A DNA stretch of 64,000 bases from an uncultured Gemmatimonadaceae bacterium (lineage in GTDB: Bacteria; Gemmatimonadota; Gemmatimonadetes; Gemmatimonadales; Gemmatimonadaceae), in assembly GCA_963716745.1 (NCBI GenBank), contig OY970320.1, forward strand, positions 2,048,001-2,112,000. The letters are read 5' to 3'. Under the pieces are notes generated by a model. The model did not search any database. It was not told where the DNA came from and saw only the letters and a list, made by a program, of their open reading frames with translations. A program made the translations under genes and the position numbers. Position 1 is the stretch's first letter. Every line of letters begins with the position of its first letter. Below are positions 4,580-61,190 of the stretch, one piece after another.

Positions 4580-5651
4580 TCAGTTCTCGCGGTGCGGCGC
4601 GCGCACCATCAATGCCGTCCACTTTCGCGCCAAGCGATACGGCCTGAGCACGTGATACAGGCCCCGCAGTCCGGCGGGCAGGGCGGTCACCTCCAGATCA
4701 TCGATGGTCGGCGTGATCGCCGAGCGCATCGCGAACGCCAGCCGATCCCGCGCTCGCTCACGCATCGCGAACTGGAATCTCGTGCTCTCGACGAAACCGG
4801 GCGCATCGCTCCCGCTCATCATCCGTCGGCGGATCTCTGCGACCAACGCAGGCGGGCACGCGTGAGCCAGCGTCTGCGCGGCCTTCGGCAGCGGGGACTC
4901 GGCGATCTCCGCCGCCAGCGCCAGCGCGAGTCCCGTCATTCGCGCCGTCCCCAAACTCGCGCTCGTCCGCTGCACGAACTCCCAGTCCATCGGCTCCAGC
5001 CTCGCCACTGCCGCGATATCCCCGATCCACCGGAGATGCGGCCATTCGTGTTTCCCACCGTGGATCGCAAGATAGACCAACGTCAACTCATTCGAGAGCG
5101 CCATTACCTCGGCCCCGCCCACCGGCACGCGTTGGGCGTTCTCCCACCAGAGCCCCTCGCCGCACGCTCAGCCCGAACTGCCGCTTGATGATCCCCCAAT
5201 GCAACTCCACGCTCGTGCCCGCCGCGTTCACGAGCGAGTGATGGTACTCGATCTCGCGGAACGCCGCATCCTGCCCCGGCGCGAGCTCGTGCACCCGCGA
5301 ATATCCAGCCGCCGACAGCTCCGCGATCGCGCGATCCACATCGCGCTCGTGCACCAGCAGGTCCACATCCATCTGCGGCCGCAGCGCGAGATCCCCGTAC
5401 GCGTGCGCCGCAAGCACCGCGCCCTTGAGCACGATCGCCGGCATGCCCGCGCGCTCCAAGCGCCGGCTGAGCGAGACGGTCTCGCCAGCGAGCATCAACG
5501 ATTGCATGGCCTGGGTCCTCGCGCGCCGCGCGATGTCCTCGCGCACCGGCGCCGGAACTGAAGAACTCGGCGCGGCCGCCACCCAGCGCGCCACCAGTGG
5601 CATCACGCCGTGCCACTCCGCCAGCTCCACCAGCGCGCTCCACTCACCCAC
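4580..5651 (-). CDS. Uncharacterised nucleotidyltransferase (NTP_transf_5-like); indel near 5150; start approximate
   Basis: IVLKGAVLAAHAYGDLALRPQMDVDLLV, VELHW, YLAIHGGKH-W--LRWIGDI. Confidence 0.85.
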
Positions 5652-10991: not shown

Positions 10992-11367
10992 ATGAGCAAG
11001 AACAAGAAGGGCTTCACGCTGATCGAGCTTCTGATCGTCGTGGTCATCATCGGCATTCTGGCCGCGATCGCGATTCCGAAGTTCGCCAACACGAAGGAGA
11101 AGGCCTACGTCGCGTCGATGAAGTCCGACCTTCGTAACATGGCGACCGCGCAGGAGAGCGTATTTCGCGGACAACCAGACGTACACCACGGTGCTCGCGA
11201 ACATGAACTTCACGGCGTCGCAGGCGGTGATCGCGACCGTGACGGATGCGAAGGGCACGGGTTGGGCGGCGAACACGTCGCACCCGGCGACCGCGATCAC
11301 GTGTGAAGTCGGTTTCGGCGCGGACTCGATCGCCGGCGTCGGCGATGGCGTGATCAAGTGCCAGTAA
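10992..11367 (+). CDS. Type IV pilin (indel near 11160)
   Basis: MSKNKKG|FTLIELLIVVVIIGILAAIAIPKF prepilin motif; GGAG RBS; C-terminal Cys pair (TCEVG..IKCQ) in the shifted frame. Confidence 0.92.
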
Positions 11368-11388
11368 CTCCGAATACTGCTCTAACTC

Positions 11389-11521: not shown

Positions 11522-12843
11522 CAGCATCCCCCACCGTCGCTCCCGATCGTGTACTGCACGCTCGTCCAACGCGAATCGACACCGGCAGCGAAGCCGTCGA
11601 TACCGAACACGGCGGTCGAGGCGACGAATTGATTCTGCGTCGCCTGCATTCCGCCGGGTGGACCGTAGTTGCGCGTGATCACCGCCGTGCCATCGACGCA
11701 GAGCGTCGCCGACGTCGTGCCGATCTTGCGCAGCCGGTACGTATGGAACGCGGTGCCCGTGAGCGCGAACGTCGCGCCCCGATTGGTCCATTTGCCGCTT
11801 CCGTTGTTGTAGGTCGCGAAGGAGACTCTATCGCTCGCGATCCCCACGAACTCCTGTCTGCGGCCGCTGCCCTGTGGCTCGGCAAAGCCGAATACCGCTT
11901 GGATCGTGCCCGCGGAGGCATTGACCACGCGGAGCCTCGCGTCCATGACCGCGGATCCGGTTCCCAGCGAATCGTGTCGTGAGTAATAGAGGCTGGTATT
12001 CGCGGTGCCCGCCTGCAGCCTCAGTTCGGTGCCCGCCGTGAAGGCCGCGGTGCCGAGCGTCGGATCGCCGGTGGACGCGAACGTTCCCCAGCGCGGTTTG
12101 CCGTTGAGATCGGGCAGAGAATCCTGCGTGCCATCGTAGATCCGGAGCCAGGTCGTCTCATGCGGCGCCGGCCACGATGCGCTCACCATGAGCGTGAAGA
12201 AGAAGGCGTGCACCGTGTCGGTGACGCCGGGATTCCAGTTGCTGGTCTTGAAGAGCCATACGATGCGATTCGTCGTATCCTTGCCCGCGGCACCGCCCGT
12301 GTAGGCTGACGGACGATTCGGATAGAAGAAATACTTCTGCCCCGCCGCGGTGAAACTGCCGGTGCCCGACTGATTGCTCACGCTCACGGCGCAGCCGACG
12401 CACGGACTCGGCCGCGAGACGTTCGGTGCGACGGTGAAGAACGCGAACACCCCCGACGTATCCGGCGCCGCCACCTCCGGATAGTTGGAACCGATCGCGA
12501 ACGCCTGGCGATTGCGAAGTTCCACGTGCGTGAACCATGTGCGGCTGCCCGCGGGGCCGACGCCGACCACATTGTGCAAACTGTCCACGACGCCGAGCAC
12601 GTCGATCGTCACGCCCTGCTGGCCATAGATCGCGGGACTGATCTTCGTGTCCGTCAGGCCCGCAATGCTGCCGGAGAGCGGCACGAACGTCGTCGTTATC
12701 GTGTTGCCGCTGATCATGCCGTTGACGAAGCCGAGTACGGGTGTCGACGGCGTCGTTATTGGAGCGGAAGGCGCCGGCTCGCTGCACGCCGCGGCGAGCA
12801 GGACGAGGGCAGCCGTTGGTATCAGTCTTGTGTGAGAAGTCAT
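11521..12843 (-). CDS. Surface lipoprotein: unnamed N-terminal domain plus beta-rich (LamG-like?) C-terminal domain; last gene of RiPP-like locus 1
   Basis: Lipobox LLAAAC; N-domain aligns by eye with 55338-55632. Confidence 0.7.
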   Translation of the reverse strand: MTSHTRLIPTAALVLLAAACSEPAPSAPITTPSTPVLGFVNGMISGNTITTTFVPLSGSIAGLTDTKISPAIYGQQGVTIDVLGVVDSLHNVVGVGPAGSRTWFTHVELRNRQAFAIGSNYPEVAAPDTSGVFAFFTVAPNVSRPSPCVGCAVSVSNQSGTGSFTAAGQKYFFYPNRPSAYTGGAAGKDTTNRIVWLFKTSNWNPGVTDTVHAFFFTLMVSASWPAPHETTWLRIYDGTQDSLPDLNGKPRWGTFASTGDPTLGTAAFTAGTELRLQAGTANTSLYYSRHDSLGTGSAVMDARLRVVNASAGTIQAVFGFAEPQGSGRRQEFVGIASDRVSFATYNNGSGKWTNRGATFALTGTAFHTYRLRKIGTTSATLCVDGTAVITRNYGPPGGMQATQNQFVASTAVFGIDGFAAGVDSRWTSVQYTIGSDGGGC

Positions 12844-12929
12844 ACGAAGATACCTGTGCGAGAAAGTGTGCTGCTCTTCGGTCAATGTATAACGGCCAAA
12901 TGCGCGCCGCATCAGCGACGTGCATCACA

Positions 12930-13844
12930 CTACGGGAACAGGATCGCCGGCTCGCGTTCCTGCGCGGCGGTCCCAGGGAACAGCACTTGGATCGAGTCCG
13001 GCGTCAACACGAGCGCCTTCATCGAACTGTTCGCCGCACCCATGGCCGCCGCGAAGATGCAGTACGACGCGTTGCAGCTCGCGGGGCCGCTCGCGGTGAG
13101 CGAGTCCGGGATCGCGTTCATGGGGTTCGTGCCGGTCGCGTCGATCCGGCGGAGGATCAGCTCCGGAACGGGCGCGATGTAGTAGATCTTCGTGCCATCC
13201 GCCGACCATGTCGGCGAGAACGCGCCGCCGCCTTCGTTCGTGATGCGCGTGGGCGTCCCGCCGCCGCTCGCCACGACGTACACCTGCGATGTTCCGGTTC
13301 CCACGCCCGTGTACGCGATGGTGTGGCCCATCGGATTCCACGCGGGCGCACTCACGGGGCTGTACACCGGGTCGCCGGTCGCGAGCATCTGCGCAGAATC
13401 CATCGTCCCCTGGTCCAGCGCCGGCGCGCGGATCAGCCACACCCTCGGCACGCCCGTGCGCGTGCTCACATAGGCGATGGAATCGCCGCTCGGGCTCAGC
13501 GCCGGCGTGTAGTCGAATGCGCCGCTATGCACGACGCGGTGCGGGGTCGTGATGTCGAGGTCGGCAATGTAGATCTGCGGGTAGCCGTCGCGCTCGCTCG
13601 TGAACACGATGCGCGATGCCGCACTGTTGGGATCGTAATTGTTCGATCCGGCGGTGAGCACGACCACGGAGTCGTTCCGGAATCGCACGAGACTCGTGAA
13701 GCCACCCGTGTCGGCCACATACACGAACGCCGGCAATGTCCCGGGCGGCGGCCCACCGCCACCATCGGTGCCCGTCGAGTTGCTGCAGGCGAGCGCGCCG
13801 ATCGCGAGGGCGGCCGCAAGAATGCGCACGGCGTCAGCTCGCAT
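12930..13844 (-). CDS. TolB-like (PD40 repeat) beta-propeller lipoprotein
   Basis: Lipobox GALAC; IVFTSERDGYPQIY, PALSPSGDSIAYVSTRTG, PTWSADGTKIYY. Confidence 0.85.
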   Translation of the reverse strand: MRADAVRILAAALAIGALACSNSTGTDGGGGPPPGTLPAFVYVADTGGFTSLVRFRNDSVVVLTAGSNNYDPNSAASRIVFTSERDGYPQIYIADLDITTPHRVVHSGAFDYTPALSPSGDSIAYVSTRTGVPRVWLIRAPALDQGTMDSAQMLATGDPVYSPVSAPAWNPMGHTIAYTGVGTGTSQVYVVASGGGTPTRITNEGGGAFSPTWSADGTKIYYIAPVPELILRRIDATGTNPMNAIPDSLTASGPASCNASYCIFAAAMGAANSSMKALVLTPDSIQVLFPGTAAQEREPAILFP

Positions 13845-14103
13845 CGGCCACCAACAATCCGGCATCGTTGAGCGCCGCGATCAGCGCGCGTGTCTCTTCG
13901 CGCGCCACGGGCTCGGTCACGGTGTACTCCGCCGCGAGTGTCTGCACGATCTCATCCTCCACGCGCCCCTCGAGCAGCAGCGCCCAGATGCGCGTACCGG
14001 TCGCGTTCAGCGAATGGTAACGATTGGTGCGGAGATTCAACAACACCGCACCCTCGGCGAGCGTCGCGGCGAGCGCGTCGGGTGTCGCGCGCCATCGGGT
14101 CAT
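13834..14103 (-). CDS. PqqD-family RiPP recognition element (89 aa)
   Basis: EGAVLLNLRTNRYHSLNATGTRIWALL..LAAEY..LNDAGLL; ATGA overlap with the reconstructed kinase stop. Confidence 0.9.
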   Translation of the reverse strand: MTRWRATPDALAATLAEGAVLLNLRTNRYHSLNATGTRIWALLLEGRVEDEIVQTLAAEYTVTEPVAREETRALIAALNDAGLLVADAS

Positions 14104-14886
14104 GACAGCGCACCCGCGAGCGTGCCGGCGATCGCGTGCAACTGCCGGGCGGTGTGAGCTGAGACGGAACGCCGGGGCGTCCGTTACGAGCGCCCGCAGC
14201 GTCTCGAGGTGCGCCTCCGAGTGGCCGTCCGGCATCATCACCCAGGTGGATTGTCGTACGAGCTGCAGCAGTGCTTCCGCGGCCGCCATGGGCAGCAGCT
14301 CGTCGCGGTCGCCGCGCTCCAGGAAGACGATCGCCGCGACGCGCGCGCGCTGCACGACGGGAAATCGCATCGGTACACGGTCGCGCTCATCGCGGAATCC
14401 CGGAGGCGGCGCGACGCCGGTGAGTTCGGGGAATTCTGGGGCGAGCGCACGGCTTACGGCGAGCGGTTCGCGCCACGCGTGCGCGACGACTCCCGTCGGT
14501 GTGCGCTCGACGATCACGCCATCGTCGCCCATCAGTCTCCAGCCGGCGCGTACGAGCGCGTAGGCGAGCGTGGACTTTCCCGTTCCGTTCCCGCCGGCGA
14601 GGATCCAGGCGCGGCCCTTCGGATCCGCCACCGCCGCGGCGTGCACGTGGAAGCGGCCGAGGGCGCGCAGGCGCACGATCGCGCCCACGCGTGCGAGGAA
14701 CTGGCGCTCGGGGGTGGCGGTGGTGGCGTAGCGATCGCCGCGTTGCAGGCGGCCACGGCGCACGGTGAGCGTGCCGCCGTCGGGCATCAGCTTGAGCACC
14801 GAGCCGGCTGCGTCGGTGAAAGCATCGATCGGACCGGCGGTCCAGGCGAACCCGGGCACGGGCTCCGCCTGTTGCGGCGTCAGCAG
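14100..14886 (-). CDS. HPr-kinase-like P-loop kinase (start uncertain; indel near 14158)
   Basis: HVHAAAV, ILAGGNGTGKST (Walker A), LMGDDGVI; shifted frame ends HTARQLHAIAGTLAGALS-TGA. Confidence 0.8.
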
Positions 14887-15104
14887 CCGAACTTCTGTCC
14901 GCTTACTCCACAGGTGATCTGCAGCGCGAACGCGACGCCGGCGGGGCCGAAGAAATGCTTCGTCAGCACCGTGAGCGATTCGTGGGTCGCGAGCTGCGGA
15001 GTCTCCCAACGGAGACGCGCCGCGCCCGATGTGTCGGGAGCGGGATCGCCGGAGCCGAGCGGAATGTTCGAACCGTCGAGGGGAGAATTGGCCATCGAGC
15101 GCAT
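14880..15104 (-). CDS. Putative RiPP precursor peptide 1 (alternative start 15095)
   Basis: Leader motif WETPQLATHESLTVLTK then HFFGPAGVAFALQITCGVSGQKFGC; directly upstream of kinase and PqqD. Confidence 0.75.
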   Translation of the reverse strand: MRSMANSPLDGSNIPLGSGDPAPDTSGAARLRWETPQLATHESLTVLTKHFFGPAGVAFALQITCGVSGQKFGC

Positions 15105-54690: not shown

Positions 54691-54719
54691 TAGACGTGCG
54701 CGACCGGTCGTTGTATGCT
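54691..54719 (+). promoter_or_regulatory. Candidate sigma70 promoter of RiPP-like locus 2 with a palindrome in the spacer
   Basis: TAGACG-17 nt-TATGCT; CGACCGGTCG at 54701-54710. Confidence 0.45.
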
Positions 54720-54765
54720 CCCTATCCCAACCGGTCAAAAGAACCCGTCCTGCCGGTCAAAAAGC

Positions 54766-54948
54766 ATGCCCTTCGTAGAAGGCACTCCTCCGAGCGAGCA
54801 GTCTCCCGCCGCATCACCGGCGTCGCCGAAGCGCGCATGGACTCCGCCGCGCTGCGAGGAATTGCCGCCGCTCACTGACCTCACCATGCAGCAGGGTTCC
54901 GGCATTCACGGCGGTGGGGGCGGAGGCGGCACGGTCTTTCCGTTCTAG
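54766..54948 (+). CDS. Putative RiPP precursor peptide 2 (60 aa)
   Basis: WTPPRCEELPPLTDLTM then QQGSGIHGGGGGGGTVFPF; first ORF of the rSAM-PqqD-kinase operon. Confidence 0.75.
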   Translation: MPFVEGTPPSEQSPAASPASPKRAWTPPRCEELPPLTDLTMQQGSGIHGGGGGGGTVFPF

Positions 54949-54978: not shown

Positions 54979-57840
54979 ATGACGCACGCGATCCGCCCGG
55001 CACGTCCTGCCCTGAGATTCCTGGTGCCGCTCGCCGGCGTCGCGGCGCTCTTGTACGGTTGCCAGAGATTCGTTGCCCACCGCAGCGAGCAAGCCGCCGG
55101 TGTATCTGGCGCAGGCGGTGCAGTGCACGGTGAGCGTGGCGCAGCAGAGCATGAGCTGCAGTTCGGGCGAGGCGGCGATCGCTTCGTCGCCGGCGCCGGG
55201 CGCTCGAGGCGGCGCGACGCGAGCATGGCGCGCAGCCAGGGGCGTCCGGTCAGCGAGCGCCGCGCTCGTCGGCCAGTCCGCATAAGTTCGTCACGGTCAC
55301 GTCGCAGAATTTCTTTCACGATGTGGCGGGCGACCGGGTCCTCGCCGACGTGAAGGTGCAGAACCTCACCACCGTCGCGATGGGCTCGAAGGACGGCAGC
55401 ACGTACGATGGCACCGGCGTGAACGTGTTCTTCGATCCGCCGCCCACGGCGCCGGTGACGATCGATAATCCCACCGGCACCAACGGCACGTTCCTCGTCT
55501 CGGGCACGACGTACTTCCAGTATCCGCAGCTCGTGCCCGCCAACGGAACCACCGCGCTTCAGTCGTGGGTATTCGGACTCCACGGCCAGGCGTCGTTCGA
55601 TTTCTTCGTGTATCGTGAGCGCGGCGATGCCGACGGATCCGGACACGGTCGTCATCCCGCCGCACGCATTCCCGGGCATCAGTTCCGGATTCGATCAGAT
55701 CTGCGCGATCCGCGCCGGCAGTCAGGCCTATTGCTGGGGAAACGATTCGCTCGGCCAGTTGGGCGACGGGCGCAGTTCGGACCAGTCCGGTGCCGGTCGC
55801 TGCGCTCGGCGGCCACATTTACAGCTCACTCTCCGCGGGTCCGACGCACGGCTGCGGCATTGAGCAGAGCACCCTCGCAGGATTCTGCTGGGGCTACGAC
55901 TCGCTCGGCGCGCTGGGCGATGGCGGCGCGACGACGCAGAGCGCGCCCACCGCCGTGGCCGGGCAGCTCAGTGGCTCTGCGATCGGCGCCGGCGCGAATC
56001 ACAGCTGCGCGATCGAGTCGGGAACGAACAAGGCATACTGCTGGGGCGACAACGCGCATGGTCAGGTGGGCAAGGGATCGTTGGGCGGGAACGTGACGTC
56101 GCCGACCGTCGTTGTCGGCGGGCACCTGTTCGTCACGGTCGTCTCGGGGCACGATCATTCGTGCGCGCTCACCGCCGCCGGCGCCGCATGGTGCTGGGGC
56201 GCGAACGCCAACATGCAGCTTGGCAACAACGGATTCGCCGATGCGTCGACACCGGTGGCCGTCGGCGGCGGCCATACATGGAAGCAGCTCACCGCGGGCG
56301 GAAACCATGCATGCGGCATTGACAACAGCGACGTCGCATGGTGTTGGGGTTCGGATGCGAGCGGCGAGCTCGGCGATGGGAACTTCGCCGACGAGGGACT
56401 CCCGGTCGCGGTCGACCCGACGGACCTCGGCACGGCGAAGATGATCAGCGCCGGCTCGGACTTCACGTGCGCCGTGGACAAGACGGCGAACGCGAATGGG
56501 TGGTGCTGGGGCGACGGCACTAGCGGGCAACTTGGCGACAACAGCCTTTTCGCGGTACCCAATCCGCAGCTCGTGGACGGCGGTCTCAAGTGGAACTCGA
56601 TCTCCGGCGGTGAGCGGCATACGTGCGGCATTGATAACACGTCGCATGGCTATTGCTGGGGCGCGGGCGACGCTGGTCAGATCGGCGACGGAGTGCCCGG
56701 ATCGACGCAAGCGCCGGGTACGCCCGTGAGCGGCGATACGTACACTGCGCTCGCGGCGGGCGGCGACTTCGCGTGTGGCATGAGCGTCGCGAAGCCGGGA
56801 ACCGGCTGGTGCTGGGGCAGCGCGCAGAAGAGCGCGCTTGGCAACGGGTTCCTCATGACGCAGAGCGCGCCGCTTGGCGTGCTGGGCTTCCATCAATTCA
56901 CTCAGCTCGCGACCGGTCAGAATCACAGCTGCGGGATCGATGTCACGGGCGCCGCATGGTGCTGGGGAGAGAATGACGTGCGACGAACTCGGCACCGGCG
57001 ACGAGACATCGCACAGCATCCCGGCGAAGGTCAGCGGCGGGCATCCTCTATTCGCAGATCAGCGCGATGTTCGTGAGACACCTGTGCGCGGGCCGACCGG
57101 AGCGGGCGACCAACCGACATACTGCTGGGGCAGCAACGGTTTCGGCGAGATCGGCGACGGCACGACGACGAACGCTCCATCGCCGACCGCGCCGGCTGGT
57201 CCGGTAACGACGTTCGCTGCGATCTCGGCCGGGCTGCAGCATACCTGCGCCGTCCAGACCGCCGGTGCCGTCTACTGCTGGGGCGACAATTCGAGCGGCC
57301 AGCTTGGCGACGGTACCAATACTCCGCAACTCCAACCGCAATCTCGTCCCGGGCTTCAGCGGCATCCGCGATCGGCGCCGGATTCTTGTTCACATGCGCG
57401 ACCGAGAGCGGCGGCAGGCCACCATCTCTGGTGCTGGGGCAGCAACAGCAACGGACAACTCGGGATCAACAGCTTCGGCGGTACCAGGACCTCGCCGACG
57501 GTGAGTCGGAGCGCGCGTTCATTCTCGCAGGTCACACTGGGCGCATTCCACGCGTGCGCGTTGGAGCAAGGCACCGGCGAATGCCTATTGCTGGGGATCC
57601 AACAACAAGGGACAGTTGGGCAGTCCGGAAGCTTCAATCAGCAAGACCGTACCCACGCTCGTTGCCGGTGCGGTCACGAGCTTCGTGAGGATCTCGGCGG
57701 GTCGGCAGGATCCCGACCGGATCGCCCATCACCTGCGCCTCGACCGCCGCCGGCGCCTCCTATTGCTGGGGTTCGACGTACGGGAATTCGCCCACGCTGG
57801 TCACGCCGCCATGAGCGCCGCCACGATCCTCGCGCGCTAG
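54979..57840 (+). CDS. Large lipoprotein: unnamed N-domain plus many RCC1/BLIP-II-like repeats (several indels)
   Basis: LLYGC lipobox; repeated H-CA/CG---G-A-CWG-N--GQLGDG in ORFs 55615, 55790, 56874 and later. Confidence 0.85.
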
Positions 57841-57846
57841 CTGCAT

Positions 57847-58844
57847 ATGCTCCTTGGCTTCGCGGTCACGCGTCACTGTAATCTTCGTTGTCCCCATTGT
57901 ATTCGGGACGACGTCGTGACGGTCGGCGAACTCAGCGCCGCGCTCATCGGCCGCATCACCGGCGAGGCGAAGGCGCTCTTCGGCGAAGTGAGAGTCAGTC
58001 TCACCGGCGGCGAACCCCTCATCCATCGCGACTTCGCCGGCATCGTCGACGGCACTGCGCGAACGCGCGGTGCCCTGGACGATCGTGACGAACGGCTGGC
58101 ACATTGCGCGCGCGCTTCCGGTGCTCGAGATCGCACCCGCCCGCCGCGGTGCGGCTCTCGCTCTCCGGCGCGAACGAAGCTGTGCATGACGCCGAGCGTG
58201 GCGACGGCTCGTTCCGCCGCGTGCTCTTGGCCGCCGCGATCCTCACGAGCCGCCGGATCCCCTTCTCGCTCGGGATCCTCATCGATCGCCGCGACCGCAG
58301 CGATCTGCGCGAGGCCGCGGATCTCGCGGAGTCGCTCGGCGCGATGAGCCTCCAGGTGCTGTTCGCGCAACCGGTGCCCGCGAGCGCCGCACGCGGCTCC
58401 GATCTCGCACCGCGCGACTGGCAGCAGGTGGTGCGCGAGGTGCGCGCATTGAGCACGGAGTCGCACCGGTGCACTGCCGTCTCGCTCGATTTCGGTGCGC
58501 CGCCCTTTCCGGGTGAAGCGCCGCTCACCTGCGACACGTTCACGCACCGCCGGATCTATGTGAATCACAACGGCGAGCTCTGTCTGTGCTGCCAGCTCTC
58601 GGAGTACGGCGAGATCCCGACCGACGTCGTCGCCGATCTGAACGCCGTGCCGCTCGCGGTCGCGTATGGCGCGTACACGCGTCAACTCGCGGAATTGCGC
58701 CGCGCCGCCGAGCCCGAAGCAGGCGATGCGCTCGCCAAGTTCCCGTGCCTTCGGTGCGCGCGGACGTCGGGCAAACTCGATTGGCTCGCGCGGTTCCCGG
58801 AGAGCCCGTGGCACGATGCCCCCGGCGTGCCCGCCCATGCGTAA
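57847..58844 (+). CDS. Radical SAM enzyme with SPASM/twitch-like C-terminus (indels near 58074-58140)
   Basis: CNLRCPHC (CxxxCxxC), LTGGEP, IVTNG, SLSGA..HD-ERG-GSF; C-x13-G-x4-C and distal CLRC. Confidence 0.92.
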
Positions 58845-59959
58845 ACTCGCGTTCGCTCTGTTGCTCCCGTTCCTGCTCGCCTCGTCGTGCGACATTCCGG
58901 GGGTCACCGACACGTCGCCGATGATCGATGTCACCGGGCGCACTGAGCGCGGGACCATAGTGGTGCTGCGCCTGCTCGTCGCCGGCTCGCCCGTCGCCGG
59001 CGCTGCATTCTCGGTCCCTCCGGACGGACACGCGTTCGTCCTGAACGAAGACAGCCTCTTCTTGATACAGCCGGGACCCCTCACGATCGATGCGCGCGGG
59101 CTTCTGGGTGGGGACAGCGTGCACGCCACACGCACGATCACGATCTCCGCGGCACCCACGATCGTGTTCGACGGTCTGGTCGCCGGGAATCGCGACATCT
59201 ACTCGGTAGGGCCTCAATGGCAGTGCGCTCGTGCGCCTCACCACCGATCCGGGCGATGATCGCATGCCCACCGCGCTCGGCGCCACGGTGTACTTCATCA
59301 GTTCGCGCAGCGGTACCGCCGAGCTGTTCACCGTTCCACTCGCAGGCGGCGCGGACGCGCCATTGGCCGCGAGCACGCTCGCGGAGAGTCAGCCGGCCGT
59401 CGCGCCGAGTGGTTCGCATCTCGCGTACGTGGGCACGGATTCGTTCCCGCACATCTATGTCGCCGGCCTCAATGGCGGTGCCGTTACTCGATTCGCGGCG
59501 GCCGACGCAGGATTCTCCGGAGCGCTGGAAGCCAGTCCCACCTGGTCGCCCGCAGGCGATCACATCGCCTACACGACCACGCGTGATGGCGCCGCCGGGA
59601 TCTATACCGGCGCGCTCAACGGCGCCGCGGGAAGCGCGACGCAGCTCGTGAGCGGCGCGCACGGGTACGCGAATGTCGACCCGGCGTGGAATCCGAACGG
59701 ACTCAGCGTCGCCTTCGCATCGAATCGTGACGGTCCAACGGATCTCTACTTGATCACCATCGCGTCGGGTACGGTGACGCGCCTGACGACGCGCGGAAAC
59801 GTGGGACAGCCCGCATGGCTCGCCGACGGCCGGCTGATGTTCACCGAATTCATCTCCGGCGCGAACGGGCTGCGCTGGCTCGACCCCGCGGACACGAGCG
59901 TGATCCACGTCATTCCCACCGGCCCGGGATCGGCCGAGCACGCGTCGGCGGTACCATGA
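58837..59959 (+). CDS. TolB-like (PD40) lipoprotein (indel near 59210)
   Basis: LLASSC lipobox; PTWSPAGDHIAYTTTRDG, PAWNPNG-SVAFASNRDG-TDLY. Confidence 0.85.
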
Positions 59960-60243
59960 GCGCGAGCCCGATACGGCCGCTCCGGCCCGCCGAGAGTGTG
60001 CTCGTCGCGCATCTCGACGGTGAATCGGTGCTGCTCGATCTCGAGAGCAAGCACTACTATCGCTTGAACGAGAGCGGCTCGGCGATCTGGCGCGCGGTTG
60101 AGTCCGGCGCGGAGCCGCACGCGATCGCCGACGCGCTGGTGTCCGCGTTCAATGTCTCGGAACCCGAGGCGCGCGCGGCCGTCGATGGGCTGCTCGCGGA
60201 TCTGAGCGAGAAAGGATTGCTCGTGCCCAAGGCCGCCGTATGA
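59956..60243 (+). CDS. PqqD-family RiPP recognition element (95 aa)
   Basis: LDGESVLLDLESKHYYRLNESGSAIW..L---F-V..LL-DL-EKGLL; ATGA overlaps on both sides. Confidence 0.92.
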   Translation: MSASPIRPLRPAESVLVAHLDGESVLLDLESKHYYRLNESGSAIWRAVESGAEPHAIADALVSAFNVSEPEARAAVDGLLADLSEKGLLVPKAAV

Positions 60244-61190
60244 GCCGCCTGCTCTCGGCGACACCGATCGCACTGGAGGCGGACCGCTTCACGGCATCGC
60301 TGATGCGCGAGATGCTCCCCGCTGTGCGCGAAACCGGTGGTCCAGCGATCGCGGGCCGAGTGCGCGCGCTGCGTTCGGCGGCGGACGCTCCCTCCTCGCC
60401 TGAGCGGGCGCCGACGCTGCGCGTGAGCGGCGTCGCGTTCTGGATCGATGCGCCGCCATCGAGCCGCGTCGCATTTCGAAATGTCAGCGGCTCGGTGCAT
60501 GGATCGATCGACCGCAACTCATCGCGCGCGGAGCTGCGCGTATCGCCGCGCATTGCGGATGACGAGCGCATGGATCCGGGAATCGCGTTCGGAGTGGTGG
60601 TGTCACTCCTGGCGGCGCGCTTGGGCCACGCGCTCGTGCACGCCGCCGGCGTGATCGCACCAAGCGGACGCGCCTGGTTGCTGGTTGGCGACTCCCACTC
60701 AGGAAAGTCGACGACCACTGCGACGCTCATCGCTGGCGGATGGGACTATCTCGGCGATGACTCGGTGGTCCTCTCGCTGGCGCGCGGCGACGCGCCCGGT
60801 GCGCGCGTGCATGTCGAAGGCTGGCGCGTGCCGATCCGCCTCGACCACGGCTCGACGGCCGGTGCGGCGCGCGCCGATCGCGTCGAGGTCGACCCGCACG
60901 CGCTCGGCGGCGGACGGTGGCGCGCATCGGCGCCGCTGGGCGGATTGCTCTTCCCGCGCGTGGATCGCGCGGCGCGCACCACGCTCGCGCCGATCGCGCG
61001 CGCCGATGCCTACGCCGCGCTCGTGCGTCAGAGTCCGTGGCTGCTCGCCGATCCTGTGAGTGCGCCGCGCGTGAGCGACCTGCTCTCGGCGGCGAGCGGC
61101 CATTCCGCCGCGCGCCTCACGCTGGGCGCCGATTGCTATGCGGACGCCGCGCGGATGACCGAGGTGCTCGGCGCGCTGACGGGCCTCTAG
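60240..61190 (+). CDS. HPr-kinase-like P-loop kinase
   Basis: LVHAAGV, LLVGDSHSGKST, YLGDDSVV, LVRQSPW; paralog of 14100-14886 (LVRQSTW). Confidence 0.85.
   Translation: MSRLLSATPIALEADRFTASLMREMLPAVRETGGPAIAGRVRALRSAADAPSSPERAPTLRVSGVAFWIDAPPSSRVAFRNVSGSVHGSIDRNSSRAELRVSPRIADDERMDPGIAFGVVVSLLAARLGHALVHAAGVIAPSGRAWLLVGDSHSGKSTTTATLIAGGWDYLGDDSVVLSLARGDAPGARVHVEGWRVPIRLDHGSTAGAARADRVEVDPHALGGGRWRASAPLGGLLFPRVDRAARTTLAPIARADAYAALVRQSPWLLADPVSAPRVSDLLSAASGHSAARLTLGADCYADAARMTEVLGALTGL

Follow-up and report, generated by a model that had tools for sequence, protein, structure and literature searches.

Radical-SAM epimerases of RiPPs are known from a few families, such as the epipeptides and the proteusins. 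The epipeptide enzyme EpeE carries one auxiliary cluster (PMC13012085) and uses Cys223 as its hydrogen donor (PMC13012085; also PMC5682303 and PMC8326336). In the sequence given in the supplement of PMC13012085, its cysteines are arranged as C206-x10-G-x4-C222-C223...C289-x2-C292, with the spacing counted by eye. The main site of EpeE is the Ile of I-L-G, and a Val is its second site (PMC13012085). A further group of related systems is formed by the linear polyphosphorylated peptides (LPP) of Popov et al., whose roles, like those of the paeninodins, are stated as unknown in that report (PMC13381572).

The window analyzed here is a stretch of 64,000 nucleotides from an uncultured Gemmatimonadaceae bacterium (assembly GCA_963716745.1, contig OY970320.1). 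Based on observed motifs, gene order, conservation pattern, and co-occurrence, it holds a previously undescribed peptide-modifying gene set of soil Gemmatimonadota, whose radical-SAM enzyme likely flips an Ile or Val of a small partner peptide to the D form. No description of the gene set was found in a literature search that covered subscription journals thinly.

The locus and its radical-SAM enzyme

The features of the window referred to below are as follows.

4904..5645, - strand: NTP_transf_5 nucleotidyltransferase, frameshifted, located where a polysaccharide locus ends
14880..15104, - strand: precursor 1 (sister locus), with a different leader subtype, a hydrophobic stretch, and a Cys pair
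54715..54948, + strand: precursor 2, starting at 54715 or 54766, with a lasso-type leader WxxPx(x)xELPxLTxLT from 54838
54979..57840, + strand: lipoprotein with lipobox LYGC, a SEC domain, then RCC1 repeats; many 1-nt indels
57847..58844, + strand: radical-SAM enzyme whose twitch-type domain has five conserved Cys, from profile matches and the alignment of relatives
57877..57900, + strand: CxxxCxxC radical-SAM cluster motif, residues 11-18, from the sequence motif
58530..58757, + strand: predicted auxiliary-cluster cysteines, C-x13-G-x4-C-C...C-x2-C, from the motif and the family alignment
58837..59959, + strand: TolB-like (PD40) beta-propeller lipoprotein, with a 1-nt insertion near 59213
59956..60243, + strand: stand-alone RRE (PqqD / lasso B1-like), PqqD E 4.6e-18
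60240..61190, + strand: predicted peptide kinase, HPr-kinase-like, containing His-Lys-Asp-Asp; sub-threshold match to TIGR04352 (E 1e-9)

The run on the + strand reads precursor 2, RCC1 lipoprotein, enzyme, TolB-like propeller lipoprotein, RRE, and HPr-like kinase. A first-pass annotation had presented the enzyme as paired with a stand-alone RRE and a kinase; both partners were recovered at 59956-60243 and 60240-61190, but the two lipoprotein genes of the same run had been left out.

The open reading frame of the enzyme is spread over three frames by 1-base insertions at 58049 and 58131, as judged against the same-genus genomes G004 and G002, and intact orthologues of 331-332 residues are present in G004 and G001. 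In short-read contigs of close relatives, all from other strains, the second extra base is absent in three runs, and in one run the contig joins across the site of the first. Similar 1-nt indels are present in unrelated neighboring genes of the window, and over 300 in-frame codons of the enzyme the differences from G004 are synonymous in 59 and non-synonymous in 15. The frameshifts are therefore most likely sequencing errors. The same observations speak against a pseudogene, to which the two frameshifts in the window's copy would otherwise point. A small-molecule substrate could be proposed because BlsE-like twitch enzymes use sugars and nucleosides and because a polysaccharide cluster adjoins the sister locus, but the tight linkage of the enzyme to a precursor described below argues against it. 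We regard a pseudogene or a small-molecule enzyme as highly improbable.

A CxxxCxxC motif followed by TGGEP, a partial TIM barrel, and a match to Pfam Radical_SAM (E 5e-9) place the enzyme in the radical SAM superfamily. Its start codon lies only 7 nt downstream of the preceding stop, which leaves it without an N-terminal RRE, and the CxxxCxxC at residues 11-18 bears out the earlier observation that this motif falls within the first 20 residues. The C-terminal C-x13-G-x4-C and CxxC reported in the first-pass annotation were also found (Cys at 58530 and 58587, CxxC at 58746/58755), together with an adjacent second Cys at 58590 that it had missed. Among 159 aligned sequences, C228 is conserved in 156, C247 in 154, C248 in 144, C301 in 155, and C304 in 153, corresponding to 91-98% for the five and 91% for C248 of the CC pair. 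Two auxiliary clusters need seven or more C-terminal cysteines. With five conserved, the SPASM half of the earlier SPASM/twitch assignment falls away and the twitch half stands, the motif C-x9-15-G-x4-C plus CxxC being that of a twitch/T-SPASM domain. This pattern fits an enzyme predicted to bind a single auxiliary cluster of the twitch type; as four cysteines would be enough for one cluster, one is spare.

Of 89 family open reading frames examined, 81 have the G-x4 motif, and in 77 of these it leads into the CC pair, compared with 1 of 77 in an outgroup (102 examined) made up of SPASM-like matches to the same profile, a control narrower than all twitch enzymes. CC may be common among uncharacterized PF13186 proteins; PF13186 itself was matched by neither P0002 nor P0011.

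With the C-terminal piece of the enzyme as a query, 475 of 7999 candidate proteins were matched; among the best 120 of these, identities range from 53 to 95% and the named proteins are from Gemmatimonadota. A profile search extends the family to relatives of about 30% identity in Brocadia, Nitrospira, Acidobacteriota, and others, so that it spans Gemmatimonadota, Acidobacteriota, anammox Planctomycetota, and Nitrospirota. No NCBIfam equivalog reached its cut-off (best match 65 bits, 265 required). The top sub-threshold match was the mycofactocin model, and TIGR04078 (300-bit cut-off) was absent from the best 25 of 35 NCBIfam matches, all at or below 65 bits. The C-terminal domain alone retrieved nothing meaningful from NCBIfam or from PDB sequences. 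A quick tree was built from 80 rows, for which every second of the 89 family sequences and every third of the 103 from the outgroup were taken. A single branch (SH-aLRT 98) separates its 45 family rows from the rest. The enzymes constitute an unnamed radical-SAM family.

When an intact orthologue was modeled (pLDDT 88.7), its predicted structure matched SPASM/twitch enzymes, led by SuiB (Z 22.6), SkfB (21.0), BlsE (20.9), anSME (20.7), and PqqE (20.3). EpeE ranked 15th, with Z 14.9, rmsd 4.4, 254 aligned residues, and about 11% structural identity; its sequence similarity to the enzyme is limited to residues 5-85 (E 0.0036). Asp210 of EpeE has no conserved counterpart in the family alignment, and EpeE homologues were not found among 301 Bacilli genomes.

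Precursor peptides and the candidate reaction

The core of precursor 2 is predicted to begin at 54889, a cleavage site that we place by assuming the lasso Thr(-2) rule; the Ile of its I-x-G lies at 54904 and its C-terminal TVF at 54931. Across 401 genomes of the phylum, the precursor (E<1e-8) was found in 26, the enzyme (E<1e-60) in 28, and both in 25, in a set of genomes that are kin and with a precursor profile seeded from enzyme loci. One genome, G150, has the precursor without the enzyme, and the three with the enzyme alone (G031, G206, and G304) carry a related leader subtype within the enzyme's locus. Sixty distinct leader matches were collected, and 58 were kept once two frameshifted ones had been set aside. 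These are followed by the enzyme gene in 31 cases, by a SEC-domain lipoprotein in 17, by a fused SEC domain in 7, and by something else in 3. The enzyme is thus very likely a peptide maturase, and precursor 2 is its likely substrate given that 25 of the 26 precursor-bearing genomes also have the enzyme. Both points agree with the first-pass annotation.

Ile26 and Gly28 of the I-x-G motif are each kept in at least 90% of 31 sequences, and the motif is Ile/Val-x-Gly overall. A Val precedes the last hydrophobic residue in 41 of 46 cores, the final residue is Phe in 39 of 46, and a Ser or Thr lies downstream of I-x-G in every core. In distant clades, FFG or FFQ cores replace the I/V-x-G, and there the target would differ. 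Cys occurs in just 5 of 47 cores, each time as a pair. The earlier judgment that sactipeptide or ranthipeptide chemistry is disfavored is consistent with this scarcity of donor Cys, and these classes were rejected.

The first-pass annotation had left the choice between an aromatic crosslink and epimerization. The window's core holds a His and two Phe, and the terminal Phe of most cores and the FF cores of distant clades would also suit a His- or Phe-based crosslink of the cyclophane or biaryl type. However, among 47 distinct unfused cores that of the window is the only one with His within I-x-G, and a same-genus orthologue has Lys there. Moreover, aromatic residues are absent altogether from 7 of the 47 cores, such as those of L035 and L037, and 5 of these 7 directly precede the enzyme gene. 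No core aromatic is conserved in the manner of aromatic-crosslinked RiPPs (triceptide, biaryl). An obligatory aromatic crosslink is therefore very unlikely, and Ile/Val epimerization becomes the best reading.

The EpeE-like order of the cysteines, the I-x-G and Val sites, and the CC control led us to commit to Ile/Val epimerization. The second Cys of the CC pair (58590, C248) occupies the place in the motif that Cys223 has in EpeE and is the putative hydrogen donor. That the enzyme is an EpeE-like epimerase of Ile and/or Val in precursor 2 is a proposition that we hold with evenly balanced confidence. Against it stand the fifteenth rank of EpeE by fold, the end of the sequence similarity at residue 85, and the missing Asp210. 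In addition, I-x-[C/G] is also present in 6 of 8 precursor-1-type peptides of enzyme-less loci, and its conservation need not reflect the enzyme.

The precursor-1-type peptides bear on a different product as well. A Cys pair is present in 7 of these 8 peptides but, at enzyme loci, in 5 of the 47 cores, and in L049 and L082 Cys stands in place of both the I-x-G Gly and the TVF Phe. Together with a Gly-rich linker of variable, loop-like length and the presence of the crosslinkers SuiB, SkfB, and PqqE among the best fold matches, this distribution could suggest ring closure by the enzyme, which would link the I-x-G Gly to the C-terminal Phe/Ile/Val and so replace the disulfide of relatives. Such a ring appears unlikely. 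The partner site is Phe, Ile, Val, Cys, or Thr, which is chemically difficult for a single crosslink, and an oxidative crosslink requires no spare Cys, whereas the CC pair is 91% conserved. Furthermore, the enzyme is retained beside cores that have the Cys pair (L042, L043, L046, L049, L082, and G031), G412 has neither the Cys pair nor the enzyme, and the enzyme-less peptides all belong to one related subtype.

The spare Cys points to redox-neutral chemistry, for which epimerization is not the sole option. Cys hydrogen donors are also used by PolH and spore photoproduct lyase, which do not epimerize (PMC5682303). The core might instead undergo a rearrangement or an addition that is redox-neutral and in which the spare Cys quenches the radical, or its Ser/Thr or C terminus might be oxidized as in anSME, BlsE, or MftC. 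Reactions of these types would accommodate the closeness of the anSME and BlsE folds, the mycofactocin model as top sub-threshold match, and the Ser or Thr past I-x-G in each core. Another core radical reaction of this kind nevertheless seems improbable, as the recurring neighbors include no lyase that would provide a dehydro acceptor. A mycofactocin-like C-terminal decarboxylation was ruled out because it conflicts with 72 fused precursor forms (see below), unless these are trimmed beforehand.

Among the family loci, many of which end at contig ends, the kinase is present in 33 of 55 and PqqD in 33 of 55. Other recurring members are NTP_transf_5, a B2-type leader protease, and a short peptide whose leader reads WxxP...LTxLT. 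No Asn-synthetase-like open reading frame was found within the family loci, and the lasso cyclase NF033535 was below cut-off in five of five genomes, with no match at all in G325. In the window's genome, the single NTP_transf_5 found (4904..5645) could serve the peptide locus in trans, and the one B2-type protease lies 860 kb from the enzyme locus (G000:C1:2965629-2966096). No subfamily could be assigned to this orphan protease by BLAST; several short repeated non-coding segments directly follow its gene.

The window opens where a long polysaccharide locus (G000:C1:2007000-2053000) containing three asparagine-synthetase-like genes ends; the sister locus and NTP_transf_5 follow it. In a distant enzyme clade from Nitrospira, Brocadia, Scalindua, and Jettenia (L062, L063, L065, L066, and L068), the enzyme is accompanied by B2, NTP_transf_5, the kinase, and the RRE, and the precursor combines a double WxxP/xxP leader with a core FFGxFxP. 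Six Pyrinomonadaceae loci (L067, L070, L071, L075, L077, and L079) contain additional sulfotransferase-like and HTTM-domain genes, with cores of the form FFQxxSSGxTN.

In the epimerization mechanism that we propose, the stand-alone RRE would bind the WxxP leader and present the peptide. A 5'-deoxyadenosyl radical would then abstract the alpha-hydrogen from the Ile of I-x-G and/or the Val ahead of the C-terminal Phe, and the spare Cys of the CC pair would donate a hydrogen on the opposite face of the alpha-carbon, with the other four cysteines binding one [4Fe-4S] cluster. The kinase would phosphorylate a core Ser/Thr, which the nucleotidyltransferase-fold enzyme may extend, and the distant lasso-B2-type protease would cut off the leader. 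The predicted product is a linear phosphopeptide containing D-residues, produced alongside a surface lipoprotein family. If true, this would define a third family of RiPP epimerases, RRE-dependent and with the Cys layout of EpeE, and a leader-portable tool to install D-Ile, D-Val, and perhaps D-Phe.

The first-pass annotation had also suggested that the enzyme could act in trans on precursor 1. The two loci lie 40 kb apart in one genome, their RREs are 35% identical, and precursor 1 contains FFG, ITC, and a Cys pair; some lasso RREs are promiscuous (PMC13381572), and G206, G304, and G031 combine the same leader subtype with a family enzyme. A thioether or an epimerized residue could be installed in this way. 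However, loci of the precursor-1 type have their own RRE, kinase, and lipoproteins, and no enzyme was found in the six genomes G003, G085, G152, G253, G309, and G412, including G085 (99% complete), G152 (100%), and G003 (82%), the last with a near-identical precursor 1. In the window, too, the sister locus supplies its own RRE and kinase. Precursor 1 is probably not a required substrate, and modification in trans is a very remote prospect.

In precursor-1-type peptides (also L263, L269, L275, and L296-L298), the leader runs straight into about 12 hydrophobic residues, after which come LQ-(G)-I-x-C and, in most cases, another Cys; these peptides may be membrane-anchored. The kinase and RRE of the sister locus (13837-14853, - strand) occupy one frame in the window and G002 and two frames in G003 and G004, reflecting either a real fusion or an indel artefact. 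A small gene at about 11000-11370 (+ strand), which we take to resemble a type IV pilin, adjoins this locus and has a near-identical copy at G000:C1:150632-150808.

SEC-domain lipoproteins and fused precursors

The SEC domain is a beta-sandwich of about 160 residues with an invariant Cys pair, located N-terminally in lipoproteins. It heads lipoproteins at both loci (54979-55630; 12160-12900, - strand) and in many relatives, and its C-terminal partners vary between RCC1 repeats, propellers, and Ig plus an M8 peptidase. No useful match to Pfam was obtained for 42 members, and Foldseek returned nothing at E<1e-3. The best match by VIA (Z 8.4) was a viral envelope protein, and there is a weak likeness to carbohydrate-binding modules. 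One loop of the domain, modeled with low confidence, contains an (I/L)GGQG motif that looks like the core of the peptide.

In some genomes the precursor and the lipoprotein are one gene. Four tandem genes immediately upstream of the enzyme in G325, and three genes in G143, start with the full leader and core and continue in the same frame into a hydrophobic stretch, then a lipobox Cys, and finally the SEC domain. Such fusions account for 72 of 99 proteins from two protein searches whose queries were picked to find them, 68 of them with a match to a lipoprotein signal pattern. The fused proteins seem to stem from one Gemmatimonadales lineage, and their core is near-invariant while the remainder diverges. 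Those of G325 (L251:6376-16541) and G143 (L252), P0270-P0291, and P0317-P0374 are SEC-domain proteins of about 800 residues, often encoded in tandem arrays of three to five paralogues. Five genomes or loci (G187, G210, G153, L130, and L131) have two to five copies of the precursor and one or two of the enzyme, and the precursor copies mostly precede different SEC-domain lipoprotein genes.

From standard signal-peptide topology, we infer that the fused core replaces the n-region of the signal peptide and would stay cytoplasmic. Alternatively, the fusion could simply have arisen by read-through between two neighboring genes and then been frozen, with the same peptide still released. Either way, the fusions and the 17 adjacent unfused copies tie peptide production to the SEC lipoproteins, and the natural precursor-lipoprotein signal fusion provides a physical, testable link of such peptides to secreted surface proteins. 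More tentatively, and with clear doubt, we consider a RiPP-type editing of lipoprotein export, in which a D-residue and a phosphate, put into the adjacent-gene or n-region peptide by an RRE-guided radical-SAM epimerase and a kinase, would gate, time, or report secretion across the surface lipoprotein family. If true, this would be a case of a post-translational D-amino acid inside a signal peptide.

Comparison with described systems

PqqE/PqqD, MftC/MftB, SynChlorMet, and GeoRSP likewise pair an RRE-free radical-SAM enzyme with a stand-alone PqqD, and PqqE aligns with the enzyme as far as the G-x4-C motif. Unlike in these systems, NCBIfam scores are far below cut-off and the cysteines are too few for a second auxiliary cluster. 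Enterococcal pheromones are small peptides encoded inside lipoprotein signal peptides. They originate from the hydrophobic part and involve no RiPP leader or modifying enzymes, whereas here leader and core replace the n-region.

The paeninodin and pseudomycoidin lasso clusters (PMC9266682) share the B1/B2 leader handling, the His-Lys-Asp-Asp kinase, and the nucleotidyltransferase-fold enzyme. In contrast to them, the family loci are without a cyclase and the cores without a conserved ring Asp/Glu or a C-terminal Ser. The [Y/W]xxPxL leader, RRE, and B2 protease of lasso systems are all present; a lasso peptide was ruled out because no macrolactam cyclase was found in the family loci or, above cut-off, in the five genomes searched.

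The LPP systems share a discrete RRE, a [Y/W]xxP leader, an HprK-like kinase, an NTP transferase, and the absence of a cyclase, and they are likewise often near polysaccharide loci (PMC13381572). All four of the RRE, kinase, transferase, and cyclase-free state were found here. However, LPP have been described in Bacillota and use a SpI/SipW-like peptidase and an MsbA-like transporter (PMC13381572); neither is among the recurring neighbors of the family loci, where the B2-type protease recurs instead. The present system adds the radical-SAM enzyme and the lipoproteins, and the main text of the LPP report contains no mention of radical SAM, epimer, lipoprotein, or Gemmatimonad (PMC13381572).

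EpeE (YydG, Bacillus subtilis, PDB 8AI1; PMC13012085) has in common with the enzyme the N-terminal CxxxCxxC, the lack of a fused RRE, a similar length, the five-Cys order C...G-x4-CC...CxxC, and a substrate with I-x-G plus Val. It differs in its low structural identity and its unmatched Asp210, and clear homology to the TIGR04078 epipeptide epimerases was not found, although the position of the putative spare Cys coincides. EpeE is also described as leader-independent, whereas here the peptide carries a lasso-type leader and a Gly-rich core and is accompanied by an RRE, a B2 protease, a kinase, and lipoproteins. The epipeptides and LPP are the closest described systems, and the system presented here belongs to neither.
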